Source of the DNA: Escherichia coli | GTDB taxonomy: Bacteria > Pseudomonadota > Gammaproteobacteria > Enterobacterales > Enterobacteriaceae | NCBI RefSeq assembly: GCF_030013595.1 | Contig: NZ_CP122768.1 | Length of the DNA: 64,000 nt | Reading direction: 5' to 3' (one strand) | Shown: piece by piece, positions 33,576 through 59,152 of the stretch | How positions within the stretch are numbered: the stretch's first letter is position 1 | Layout: every line of letters starts with the position of its first letter | Translations under genes and position numbers: made by a program | The notes under the pieces: generated by a model | The model's input: the letters and a program-made list of their open reading frames with translations, nothing else | What the model was told of the DNA's origin: nothing | The model's database searches: none

Positions 33576-34520
33576 ATGCTAACATTTTTTATTGGCGATT
33601 TATTGCCTATTATCGTAATCATGCTGTTGGGTTATTTTAGCGGCAGACGAGAAACTTTTTCAGAAGATCAAGCCCGGGCATTTAATAAACTGGTATTAAA
33701 CTACGCTCTTCCTGCGGCTCTATTTGTATCTATTACCCGAGCAAACAGGGAAATGATTTTTGCGGACACTCGTCTGACCCTTGTATCACTTGTGGTTATT
33801 GTCGGATGTTTCTTTTTCTCCTGGTTCGGTTGCTACAAATTTTTTAAACGTACTCATGCAGAAGCAGCAGTATGTGCATTAATTGCAGGTTCACCTACCA
33901 TTGGATTCCTGGGATTTGCAGTTCTCGATCCTATTTATGGTGATTCCGTATCAACAGGTTTAGTGGTAGCAATTATTTCAATTATCGTTAACGCAATTAC
34001 TATTCCTATTGGTCTGTATTTGCTGAATCCCTCCTCAGGAGCGGATGGTAAGAAGAATAGTAATCTGAGCGCATTAATTTCTGCGGCAAAGGAGCCAGTA
34101 GTATGGGCACCTGTTCTGGCAACGATCCTGGTGTTGGTTGGGGTAAAAATTCCGGCAGCATGGGACCCAACCTTTAATCTGATTGCGAAGGCTAACTCAG
34201 GGGTAGCGGTATTCGCTGCGGGGTTGACTCTGGCTGCACATAAATTCGAGTTCAGTGCCGAAATTGCTTATAACACCTTCCTGAAGCTAATTCTGATGCC
34301 ACTGGCGCTGCTTCTCGTTGGTATGGCATGTCATTTGAACAGCGAACATTTGCAGATGATGGTACTGGCAGGCGCCTTACCGCCGGCATTCTCCGGAATC
34401 ATTATTGCCAGCCGGTTTAATGTCTACACCCGCACTGGTACAGCGTCACTGGCTGTGAGCGTACTGGGCTTTGTCGTCACGGCTCCTTTGTGGATTTATG
34501 TCAGTCGACTGGTTTCATAA
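33576..34520 (+). CDS. yfdV: AEC-family transporter
   Basis: 314-aa polytopic ORF. Confidence 0.9.
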
Positions 34521-55533: not shown

Positions 55534-55845
55534 TTAGGCGGCTGATGTTTCTTCTTTCAGGCTTTCGAGATATTTACGTGGGTCGTCGTAACATTGGCAT
55601 TCGCTGTACCAATCCACCCAGCGATCAGTAAGCCCCACCTCTGATAAATCTTCATCGGTAAGGCTCTCATCCCACATCTCAAGGCCGTTAGCATTGCAGT
55701 AATCAGGCTTGATGTTGTTGTCATACTGAAAGGCGTCATAATCAGCCAGTGCGTCCATCAGGCGAACACCCTCTTCAACACTTGCCACTTCTACAATGAA
55801 CGGCTTCATAGGTACTTGCGGGATATGCCAGACACGTAATTTCAT
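55534..55845 (-). CDS. hypothetical acidic protein (lambda ea10 position)
   Basis: 103-aa ORF, strongly acidic, Trp/Cys-containing. Confidence 0.5.
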   Translation of the reverse strand: MKLRVWHIPQVPMKPFIVEVASVEEGVRLMDALADYDAFQYDNNIKPDYCNANGLEMWDESLTDEDLSEVGLTDRWVDWYSECQCYDDPRKYLESLKEETSAA

Positions 55846-55989
55846 ATTTCCTCCGTCAAAAAAATGCCCTCACACTGGAGGGCAAAGAAGATTTCCAATA
55901 ATCAGAACAAGTCGGCTCCTGTTTAGTTACGAGCGACATTGCTCCGTGTATTCACTCGTTGGAATGAATACACAGTGCTTATTCGCAGC

Positions 55990-56316
55990 CTACATAATCA
56001 TTCCGGTTATTATTACCATTTCAATATCGCTATCTTTCATAATGATTGGAGTTGAGTTATCAACTTTACTTTTACTCCATTTTCCTGCATCAGTTTTTAC
56101 CGCTCCACAATAAGAAAGCCAATCATCATCACAATGTTCTGGATCACTAATTCTGACAAGAACACGTGATAGTGCTTTTTCGATACTTTCATCACAATTA
56201 GCATTTGTGTAATTGCCGTGAGACAATTTCAAATCGTTAACTTCATCTTCATTGGCATCAAAAATATAGATTTCAGTCGACTCTGGAACATTTTCATAAA
56301 CCATTAAAACTTTCAT
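55990..56316 (-). CDS. hypothetical protein, AT-rich moron-like gene
   Basis: ORF 55990-56397; likely start ATG 56316 (MKVLMVYENVPE...) after GGGG RBS; low GC relative to flanks. Confidence 0.45.
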   Translation of the reverse strand: MKVLMVYENVPESTEIYIFDANEDEVNDLKLSHGNYTNANCDESIEKALSRVLVRISDPEHCDDDWLSYCGAVKTDAGKWSKSKVDNSTPIIMKDSDIEMVIITGMIM

Positions 56317-56356
56317 TTTTACCCCATATTGTTTATGCCAAAAATAAAGGCCACCA

Positions 56357-56557
56357 TTAGGCAGCCTTGTTGTTCTGTTTACCAAGTTCTCTGGCAATCA
56401 TTGCCGTCGTTCGTATTGCCCATTTATCGACATATTTCCCATCTTCCATTACAGGAAACATTTCTTCAGGCTTAACCATGCATTCCGATTGCAGCTTGCA
56501 TCCATTGCATCGTTTGAATTGTCCACACCATTGATTTGTATCAATAGTCGTAGTCAT
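56357..56557 (-). CDS. ral: Ral-like small Cys-rich protein (restriction alleviation), tentative
   Basis: 66-aa ORF with CGQFKRCNGC motif at the ral position and size; identity from recall. Confidence 0.5.
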   Translation of the reverse strand: MTTTIDTNQWCGQFKRCNGCKLQSECMVKPEEMFPVMEDGKYVDKWAIRTTAMIARELGKQNNKAA

Positions 56558-56627
56558 ACGGATAGTCCTGGTATTGTTCCATCACATCCTGAGGATGCTC
56601 TTCGAACTCTTCAAATTCTTCTTCCAT
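56541..56627 (-). CDS. possible 28-aa acidic leader peptide (MEEEFEEFEEHPQDVMEQYQDYPYDYDY)
   Basis: Short ORF with strong GAGGTGA RBS 6 nt upstream of ATG; its stop overlaps the ral-like start. Confidence 0.25.
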   Translation of the reverse strand: MEEEFEEFEEHPQDVMEQYQDYPYDYDY

Positions 56628-56685
56628 ATCTCACCTCAAATAAGTGGTTTGCTGCCTAATTTCATTTTCTGGCGACCAACACAAG

Positions 56686-56958
56686 TCATCTTGCTGTCAG
56701 CTGTTTGGATTTCCTGTAGCCTGCCGCGTAAATGGCTACATTTGGAAGACAAGTTGAGCCTTCATATTTTCTGGTCAACGTTGTCAGTGTTATTACTTCT
56801 GCTCTCATTACTGGTTTGCGTTTGCATTGTAAGACCACTCGTGAAGGGGTTGGCCTGTGTAGCTTGTCAGAGCTGATCGCCTCCTGACTTTGCAGGTTTG
56901 CACGACGAGCTCTACGGCGAGAAGCTGCGGTGCCTTTAAATTCTGTTTTTCTGGACAT
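56686..56958 (-). CDS. N-like transcription antiterminator (P22 gene 24 type)
   Basis: ORF 56686-57030; start refined to ATG 56958 after GGGAGGA RBS; arginine-rich motif AASRRRARRANLQ; C-terminus ...IYAAGYRKSKQLTAR. Confidence 0.75.
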   Translation of the reverse strand: MSRKTEFKGTAASRRRARRANLQSQEAISSDKLHRPTPSRVVLQCKRKPVMRAEVITLTTLTRKYEGSTCLPNVAIYAAGYRKSKQLTAR

Positions 56959-57056
56959 AGATTCCTCCCGAATAAACTTTGGCGATGCAATCTCGAAGCT
57001 CCTCCTGAGACGGTTGCTTCGGCATTGCATCCCACAGCTTATATGGTTGGGTGATC

Positions 57057-57070
57057 TGGCTTTTCAGCCA
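57057..57070 (-). promoter_or_regulatory. putative nutL boxB hairpin
   Basis: Transcript-sense UGGCUGAAAAGCCA stem-loop between the putative pL and N start. Confidence 0.35.
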
Positions 57071-57148
57071 CGTAGTCGAGTGTTCGACGTTGTTTAAAGA
57101 GCCTGCCAGTCTGCTCCGTTTGGCTTACAGCGTCCTGCTGACGGTTAA

Positions 57149-57177
57149 ATAGTACGATATGTACTTTATTGGGTCAA
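57149..57177 (-). promoter_or_regulatory. putative pL promoter
   Basis: TTGACC -35 and TACTAT -10 with 17-nt spacer on minus strand upstream of N. Confidence 0.35.
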
Positions 57178-57397
57178 TACAATTTGTTCTAAAATGGGGT
57201 GATTTTTTATAACGCTTTGTATTTAATAGTGTTGTTTTTTAGCGTGGGTGTATCGCCTCGGCGATGTAAGGAGAGATCAGAATTGCGTGGTTTAGTGAGT
57301 TGTATCTATTTATTTTTCAATAAATACATTTGGTTATGTGTCTTTAGGTGGGGGCGTGAGGCAAAGAAAACCCGGCTCGGTGGCCGGGTTGATGGGA

Positions 57398-58255
57398 TTA
57401 TCGTTTATTTCTTTGATGTTTCTTTGCTGACTCAGCTTGAGTGTTTCCATACCTGCGTTTACCGCTATTGTTTTTTCCTCTAGGCTTGCCTTTTTTTCGA
57501 TCTTCCCACCAGTCAGGTGCCGGGTCTGGCTCAACATGTAAAGCATCGGCAAGTCCTGATATCAAGCTGTATGACTGAACTCCATCAATGTGCTCTGACA
57601 GTGATGGGGTAACATTCTGTCTTAGTGGATCAAGAATAAAATCAATACCTTTAATTCTGGCGTGTTTGGCGGCAGGCACAAAGTCTGAGTCCCCAGCAAC
57701 AAGGACAATTACATCAACAAGTTTTTCATAAGCTAAAGTCGTGATATCCATCCCTAGCTTGATATCAACTTGTTTTTGTTTGATGTCATAGTAAAAATCA
57801 TCATTTGTCAGTTCATCCCATTTTTTCGTTCCTTTCATCAGAGCATCAAGGGAGAATGTAGTTAGTTGCCATCGCTTATTATCAACAAGATTCCCTAATC
57901 TTAAGGCTGTTTTTCGAGTTTTTCTTAACTCTTCATGCAGCTCCGTTCTCAGAATATATGATTTTTCGAGTTTGAAATTCTTGCGACCAGGCGTCTTATT
58001 GCCAGGCTCAGGAAGTGGAAGGCGTGTTTGAATGTCGAGTGGTGGACAGTCATAGAAGTAAATTCTATAAAGCTCAAGCGGTTCCCTACGTTCTTGTGAT
58101 TGACGTTTTCCATTAAGATGGGAAAGAACCATTGACCATATTACTTTCATTATGCATTGCGCAGTCAGTTCATGCTCGGCGAAGTGTTTACGATGCGTAG
58201 CATGAACACGCTGCATGAAAAAACCCGCATCAATTAAAATTGCTGCTTTCTTCAT
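57398..58255 (-). CDS. NYN/LabA-like (PIN-fold) nuclease-domain protein with Lys/Arg-rich C-terminal tail; candidate prophage exclusion/defence protein in the rex position
   Basis: 285-aa ORF: N-terminal AILIDAGFF and central VLVAGDSDFVPAAKHARIKGIDF NYN-type motifs; basic tail; between cI and pL/N; AT-rich. Confidence 0.75.
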   Translation of the reverse strand: MKKAAILIDAGFFMQRVHATHRKHFAEHELTAQCIMKVIWSMVLSHLNGKRQSQERREPLELYRIYFYDCPPLDIQTRLPLPEPGNKTPGRKNFKLEKSYILRTELHEELRKTRKTALRLGNLVDNKRWQLTTFSLDALMKGTKKWDELTNDDFYYDIKQKQVDIKLGMDITTLAYEKLVDVIVLVAGDSDFVPAAKHARIKGIDFILDPLRQNVTPSLSEHIDGVQSYSLISGLADALHVEPDPAPDWWEDRKKGKPRGKNNSGKRRYGNTQAESAKKHQRNKR

Positions 58256-58382: not shown

Positions 58383-59036
58383 TCACCCAAACGTCTCTTC
58401 AGGCCACTGACTAGCGATAACTTTCCCCACAACGGAACAACTCTCATTGCATGGGATCATTGGGTATTGTGGGTTTAGTGGCTGTAGAAACACCTGACCG
58501 CTATCCCTGATCAGTTTCTTGAAGGTAAACTCATCACCACCAAGTCTGGCTATACAGAAATCGCCTGGCTCAACAGCCTGCTCAGGGTCAACCAGAATTA
58601 ACATCCCGTCAGGAAAGCTGGGCTTGGATCCTGTTGGTGCGGTCATGGAATTACCTTCAACCTCAAGCCAGAATGCAGAGCCACTGGCTTTTTTGGTTGT
58701 GCTTACCAATCTCTCCGCATCGCCTTTGGTAAAGGTTCTGAGTTCTGGAGAGAACATCCCAGCCTGAACATGAGAAAATACAGGGTACTCATATTGTTTT
58801 TTAACTGGGGCCGATGAGTATTCGCCAACAGGTGAAAATGTCCCGTCGTGGTTGAATGATATGTTATCAATACCAAGGTATTTAAACACCACACCAATAT
58901 CACTAAGAGATGGATGACGAGATCCGCGCAACCAGTGTCCAATCCCACCCTGCGTCATACCTAGCTCTTCGGCTAACTTCTCTTGAGTTATGCCGAGCTC
59001 TTTCATTCTGGATCTAGCCAGTTCATACCATTTCAT
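58383..59036 (-). CDS. cI: cI-type prophage repressor (HTH plus S24 LexA-like peptidase domain)
   Basis: ORF 58383-59084; probable start ATG 59036 ([10 protein letters not shown]...) 7 nt after AAGGA; C-terminal GNSMTAP...KKL...PLNPQYPMI autocleavage domain. Confidence 0.85.
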
Positions 59037-59152
59037 TTTCATGTCCTTATTATTACGCTCTGTACTGGAACCATCAATGCACAATGTGTATTTTTGCTTG
59101 TATTTGGAAAGTACATATTGTATTTTTTATTCGAGGTTACTATGGAGGGCAT

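Follow-up and report, generated by a model that had tools for sequence, protein, structure and literature searches.

A 28-codon open reading frame (ORF) that overlaps the 5' end of ral in a lambdoid prophage of Escherichia coli is a real, conserved gene, which forms the first cistron of an orf28-ral cassette in the early-left operon. It lies in a stretch of 64,000 nucleotides from contig NZ_CP122768.1 (assembly GCF_030013595.1), which is referred to below as the window. Selection at the amino acid level, persistence without functional ral and fusion to other proteins together suggest that the polypeptide itself is the selected product.

Identity and genomic context of orf28

The original prediction described a possible 28-residue peptide without stating its strand. 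Its sequence exactly matches the minus-strand translation MEEEFEEFEEHPQDVMEQYQDYPYDYDY, whose ATG is at 56627..56625 and whose TGA is at 56543..56541 (Table 1). The extreme composition that had been pointed out was also evident: the peptide contains 12 acidic, 7 aromatic and no basic residues. All 87 nucleotides are identical to those of phage lambda orf28 (lambdap47, NP_040623.1; NC_001416, complement 34271..34357), and the peptide matched phrog_16060 (PHROG 16060, 28 positions, function unknown) over positions 1-28 of 28 with an E-value of 7.1e-19. The NCBI entry of the protein, AAA96576.1, occurs on 182 contigs. Judged by this identity, the ORF is the long-annotated orf28 of lambda and nothing new in kind, and its novelty is low because it was already part of the lambda annotation. 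The downstream gene, previously called ral-like, is full-length ral.

Table 1. Features of the orf28-ral region, in coordinates of the window
Feature	Position	Strand	Remarks
orf28	56541..56627	minus	28 codons, product MEEEFEEFEEHPQDVMEQYQDYPYDYDY; 100% nucleotide match to lambda orf28
orf28 Shine-Dalgarno sequence, GAGGTGA	56631..56637	minus	Includes an in-frame TGA, which ends the frame on the upstream side
Conserved 5' boundary of the orf28-ral module, 18 nt, GCAGCAAACCACTTATTT	56638..56655	minus	Lambda homology begins here
ral, 66 aa, restriction-alleviation protein	56357..56557	minus	PF11058 Ral, E 1.7e-48; phrog_1055
ral start codon ATG	56557..56555	minus	+1 frame relative to orf28
Weak ral Shine-Dalgarno sequence, AGGA	56566..56569	minus	Within orf28 codons Q20-D21, 8 nt before the ral ATG
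Intrinsic-terminator-like hairpin and T-run over the ral stop codon	56347..56368	minus	Sequence also in lambda
N-like antiterminator gene	56686..57030	minus	PF25694 N_peptide, E 1.5e-32, residues 23-114
Promoter-like TTGACC-17-TACTAT	57149..57177	minus	Consensus scan only
NYN-domain gene, followed by a terminator (57390..57369)	57398..58255	minus	PF01936
cI-like repressor gene	59084..58383	minus	

The neighborhood is the leftward early operon of a lambdoid prophage. The promoter-like sequence is probably the early-left promoter for N, orf28 and ral, as judged from its position between the terminator of the NYN-domain gene and N, and the true start of the N-like gene is likely the ATG at 56958. 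Beyond the terminator 3' of ral, the genes are, in order, a gp17-like gene, cIII, kil, gam and bet. The arrangement resembles that of lambda, in which the same 87 nucleotides encode the same peptide with the same 17-nt overlap with ral, in the leftward early operon downstream of N. However, in lambda the oppositely oriented sieB lies between N and orf28, whereas here no sieB is present and orf28 follows the N-like gene after 58 nt. A strand error in the orientation of lambda sieB was ruled out, as its 184-aa ORF is on the plus strand. Upstream of the orf28 ATG, homology with lambda extends for only about 25 nt. The 18-nt leader and the Shine-Dalgarno (SD) sequence are found before orf28 even where the DNA further upstream is unrelated, in at least six different contexts, so that orf28 and ral travel as one module. 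This module has its boundary about 25 nt upstream of the orf28 ATG, and the two genes are inherited together. The leader itself resembles either a mosaic-module junction or a functional 5' element.

Several other genes of the region were noted. The NYN-domain protein (285 aa; PF01936, E 6.8e-9; weak PADLOC matches to HEC-09 and NYN) is encoded between the cI-like repressor gene and the early-left promoter, a layout also seen in phage 2B8, and its gene is a candidate prophage defense or exclusion gene. In lambda, this position is that of rexAB. A 103-aa homolog of P22 gene 17 (55534..55845, minus strand; PF17420 "superinfection exclusion gene product 17", E 5.6e-55) is located in the same operon as orf28 and has a strong SD (-9.5 kcal/mol). 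A 135-aa ORF starting from TTG (55990..56397, minus strand) overlaps the 3' end of ral and its terminator; its real start is probably an ATG near 56316, because the match to PHROG 4658 begins at residue 28. We take the gene starting there to occupy the position of lambda ea10.

Purifying selection on the orf28 frame

There are 65 ORFs of at least 20 residues within 4 kb, and a length of 28 codons is by itself at chance level. Conservation is decisive in placing orf28 beyond chance, and its SD is also unusual. We collected ral loci from IMG/VR and GTDB with lambda-type, Providencia-type and Salmonella-type Ral as queries, and IMG/VR was additionally scanned with a degenerate orf28 motif. Conservation in related prophages, which had been proposed as a check of the ORF, was indeed found: almost all of the roughly 125 unique ral loci carry an intact orf28.

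Selection was analyzed in 60 intact 28-codon alleles (35 distinct peptides) over codons 2-23, which lie outside the overlap with ral. The minimum numbers of changes at codon positions 1, 2 and 3 were 12, 7 and 38, respectively (chi-square p = 4.7e-7). The pN/pS ratio was 0.17 in the orf28 frame and 0.195 for ral in the same loci, whereas the remaining two sense frames had ratios of 2.5 and 1.5. Both halves of orf28 are constrained, with a ratio of 0.21 over codons 2-15 and 0.12 over codons 16-22. This pattern of substitutions indicates that orf28 is a genuine protein-coding gene under purifying selection at the amino acid level, equal in strength to that on ral. Residues that vary little or not at all include E6, E7, F8, H11, P12, D14, M16, Y19, Q20 and Y22, with bulky residues conserved at position 5 (F or I) and position 8 (F), and the CAG codon at position 20 was retained in 45 of 49 alleles.

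More distant forms were also detected. Versions of orf28 are present beside Ral homologs that are only about 62-70% identical; these orf28 versions include MEDDIEEFDEHPDDDMSQYQDYPYEYDY, MDEDIEEFEDHPSDVMEQYQDYPYEYDY and a Kluyvera form with 23 codons and a GTG start. Divergent alleles have different SDs and carry in-frame indels only (9 or 15 nt). Premature stop codons in orf28 were seen in two loci (L158 and L108), and a single locus among the ral loci examined (L138) has no orf28. In Salmonella P22-like loci (e.g., L167, L171 and L208) the ORF is intact and its SD is weakened to GAGATGA (-4.8 kcal/mol); expression of orf28 may therefore be tuned differently in P22-like phages.

orf28 in the absence of functional ral and in fusion proteins

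In two loci, L330 and L331, orf28 is directly followed by an intrinsic terminator and there is no ral; orf28 is preceded by N or by a different small gene, and L331 has lost the ral ATG. Between the two orf28 copies, most differences are synonymous changes or D/E exchanges. In eight further loci ral carries an internal deletion or a nonsense codon and orf28 is intact. Taken together, these loci indicate that orf28 is not dependent on ral for its persistence. A recurrent ral pseudogene allele with an internal deletion, MTTTID.NQWCGQYERRQ*, was found in L246, L260, L295, L302, L347 and L355, that is, in several backgrounds and always with an intact orf28, and the nonsense codon was found in L269 and L270.

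A profile search of 1.84 billion representative proteins yielded 30 matches, all of 24-70 aa, and no larger protein family among them that could lend orf28 a function. The matches were orf28 itself, versions of it with a wrongly assigned start, or fusions of two types. Two matches are genuine fusions, in which a CxxC...HxC protein of 56 or 69 aa ends in the orf28 core (DDFDEHPADDMGQYQDYPYDYDY and a relative) as its C-terminal tail, so that 33-45 residues precede the acidic core. The overlap is 17 nt with a divergent ral for one fusion gene (in L360), and 11 nt with an unrelated 38-codon ORF for the other (in L362). These CxxC...HxC proteins are zinc-knuckle-like (L360, 2501..2671; L362, 493..702), and the L362 contig also has a gene for an AcrIF11-like ADP-ribosyltransferase.

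Overlap with ral and possible translational coupling

The original prediction placed the orf28 stop codon on the ral start codon. This geometry was wrong: the two genes share 17 nt, which puts the TGA 11 nt inside ral. The same overlap occurs in lambda (34271..34357 versus 34087..34287) and is kept in nearly all of the approximately 125 loci. The GAGGTGA motif was correctly recognized as an SD, and the reported spacing of 6 nt holds for its GAGG core, while the whole heptamer ends 3 nt before the ATG. Its predicted duplex with the anti-SD (-11.5 kcal/mol) was the strongest of the early-left genes checked in the window, and only about 1.5% of random 20-mers from the window reached -10.5 kcal/mol or lower. 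In contrast, the ral SD gave -4.0 kcal/mol, against a background mean of -3.7 kcal/mol in the window, and orf28 had the stronger SD of the two genes in 51 of 52 unique allele pairs.

Thus, as in coupled gene pairs, the upstream stop codon is within a few nucleotides of the downstream start, and a strong upstream SD is combined with a weak downstream one. A hand-over of ribosomes from orf28 to ral is plausible from these features, although ral could also initiate alone from the AGGA upstream of its ATG. In two loci (L184 and L100) a 45-nt in-frame deletion has removed codons 1-15 of orf28, so that GAGG is now 5 nt before Met16 and a 13-codon ORF (MNKYQDYPYDYDY or MNKYQEYPYGYNY) with an unchanged stop is left. 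The deletion allele has persisted, as it was found with two different ral alleles; it lies about 40 nt upstream of ral (ral start at 1501). In L138, which has no orf28, the ral start codon and the stop codon of a different gene form an ATGA overlap.

Possible RNA elements in this region were also analyzed. A conserved structure hiding the ral start was not found: the consensus fold of 13 sequences had -4.7 kcal/mol with no compensatory changes, and the single-sequence fold had a z-score of -1.3. In 11 of the 13 sequences the regions around the orf28 and ral AUGs retain a 6-bp pairing, but it shows no covariation and was given no weight. The Rfam search of 55800..57400 detected no family, only a chance-level match to RyhB (E 0.6), and no terminator was found between orf28 and ral. 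An attenuator-type leader of the trpL or pheL kind was rejected on these grounds, i.e., no intervening terminator and no conserved structure or covariation; moreover, there is no room for an attenuator terminator because orf28 overlaps ral. A programmed +1 frameshift that would fuse orf28 to ral was likewise rejected, on sequence grounds only: there is no slippery site at TAT TGA.

Alternative explanations

The original prediction considered either a real micro-protein or a regulatory leader. The former reading is favored by purifying selection equal to that on ral (0.17 versus 0.195) and by the survival of orf28 where ral is absent or broken. In its purely cis-acting form, the leader would feed ribosomes to ral through its own translation and the peptide would be a functionless by-product. 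The strong orf28 SD next to a background-level ral SD, the conserved 17-nt overlap, the deletion alleles, which retain only a 13-codon ORF with the SD moved before its start, and the coupling of ral to a different upstream gene in L138 would all fit such a role. However, a pure cis leader would need no amino acid conservation and would not persist without ral, whereas the amino acid constraint on orf28 equals that on ral while third positions vary freely, the ORF is retained without ral in L330 and L331 and beside eight broken ral genes, and its core is reused as the tail of larger proteins. Such a leader is thus unsupported, and we consider it unlikely.

It is less probable still that orf28 encodes a regulatory nascent peptide, whose acidic N-terminus would destabilize or pause the ribosome and make Ral synthesis respond to Mg2+ or to the translation state of the cell. 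N-terminal sequences rich in D, E or P are known to cause translation abortion or pausing (bioRxiv 10.1101/2021.02.02.429294; PMC11282234) and can control a co-translated downstream gene, e.g., in aceB-aceA (PMC11282234). Residues 2-7 of orf28 are EEEFEE (5 of 6 acidic), which qualifies as a D/E/P-rich window, and 7 of residues 2-11 are acidic; a role of this kind would also account for selection at the amino acid level. However, bulky residues are reported to counteract the effect of an acidic run, and about 30 preceding residues to abolish it (bioRxiv 10.1101/2021.02.02.429294). In orf28 the bulky F/I5 and F8 are conserved, the acidic core follows 33-45 residues in L360 and L362, the deletion alleles have no acidic N-terminus, the C-terminal half is constrained at least as much as the N-terminal half, and neither a terminator nor an alternative structure was found between orf28 and ral. 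The least probable explanation, to which we give very little credence, is that orf28 is not a gene and that a chance frame is conserved through the ral 5' region, an antisense gene or an RNA element. It is true that 28-codon ORFs are common by chance, that PGAP has no CDS between the N-like gene and ral in NZ_CP146681.1, the single RefSeq E. coli locus inspected, and that plus-strand ORFs of 56 aa (56489..56659) and 100 aa (56574..56876) overlap orf28. However, three-base periodicity of substitutions occurs in the orf28 frame only; pN/pS exceeds 1.3 in two of the antisense frames, in the third 58 of 61 alleles contain stop codons, and both plus-strand ORFs were rejected as the real genes. In addition, there is no Rfam family and no conserved structure, and divergent relatives have a GTG start and indels that leave the frame intact. 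These comparative data exclude a chance ORF.

Proposed role of orf28 and comparison with known systems

Our preferred and moderately probable explanation, an orf28-ral cassette whose first gene encodes a functional peptide, would involve two steps. In the first, which we regard as evenly balanced, ribosomes would load at the orf28 SD, cross the SD and ATG of ral and stop 11 nt inside it; most ral translation would then come from re-initiation or from an opened ral start site. In the second, which we judge moderately probable, the peptide would be a functional product acting in trans, which binds a host or phage protein through a short acidic and aromatic motif; anti-restriction or host takeover, as for ral, would be the most plausible context. 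The orf28 peptide is strongly acidic and aromatic and probably disordered. An AlphaFold2 model of orf28-(G4S)4-Ral with 30 paired sequences was of low confidence (pLDDT 49.8), with the peptide as a coil below 50, and a PDB sequence search detected no relative of Ral or orf28.

A more specific and rather doubtful possibility is that orf28 is a trans-acting disordered microprotein that serves as the second component of the lambda restriction-alleviation module or as an independent host-takeover factor. It might act with Ral on HsdM of type IA enzymes, or as a minimal decoy for a host protein that binds nucleic acids or SSB tails. The RalR/RalA toxin-antitoxin system of Rac has no bearing here, as RalR is just 24% identical to Ral.

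The first step has parallels among translationally coupled, overlapping cistrons, in which re-initiation follows termination near a start codon, as in trpB-trpA; "scanning" re-initiation was reportedly described for the MS2 coat and lysis genes by Adhin and van Duin in 1990. The likeness is that orf28 has a strong SD and stops a few nucleotides from the start of ral, which has a poor SD. The difference is that its stop codon is 11 nt downstream of the ral ATG and does not form an ATGA or TGATG overlap. orf28 resembles MgtL and the EttA-dependent acidic N-termini in that a very short ORF whose product begins with an extremely acidic stretch precedes a regulated gene. However, orf28 differs in its conserved bulky residues and in a C-terminal half conserved to the same degree; some family members do not have the acidic segment at the N-terminus, and neither a Rho site nor a terminator switch was seen. 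Among anti-restriction proteins, the DNA mimics Ocr and ArdA have more than 100 residues each and fold so as to imitate long stretches of DNA. orf28 resembles them in its very negative charge and in its genetic linkage to ral, which acts against type I restriction, but with 28 residues modeled as a coil it does not appear to be a folded DNA mimic.

Distribution and significance

A 100-nt orf28 query matched 117 phage records, including lambda, P22, Sf6, SfI, Sf101, CUS-3, HK140, ST64T, L and BTP1, and orf28 is annotated in only some of them. Among 5,426 complete E. coli genomes, at least 784 contain 80% or more of a 344-nt query comprising ral, orf28 and the leader, and 1,757 have a partial match; the annotations listed at these matches give Ral together with N or a hypothetical protein. 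A CRISPRi screen across lambda lists orf28 as a non-essential hypothetical gene, dispensable for plaque formation in the laboratory (PMC10695390), and lambda strains deleted for orf28-ral are viable (PMC2327257). In the searchable literature we found no functional study of orf28, no paper with the peptide sequence and none that combines "orf-28" with "ral" and "lambda".

The present analysis adds that the 28-residue frame is conserved at the protein level as strongly as ral, and that orf28 is widespread, able to exist without ral, and unannotated in one RefSeq E. coli locus inspected. If it does act in trans against host defense, orf28 would be among the smallest phage counter-defense effectors, overlooked for 40 years in the best-studied phage and, judging by the one RefSeq locus inspected, apparently absent from routine annotation of E. 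coli genomes. The interest of the finding is that this phage carries a conserved, widespread and uncharacterized microprotein.
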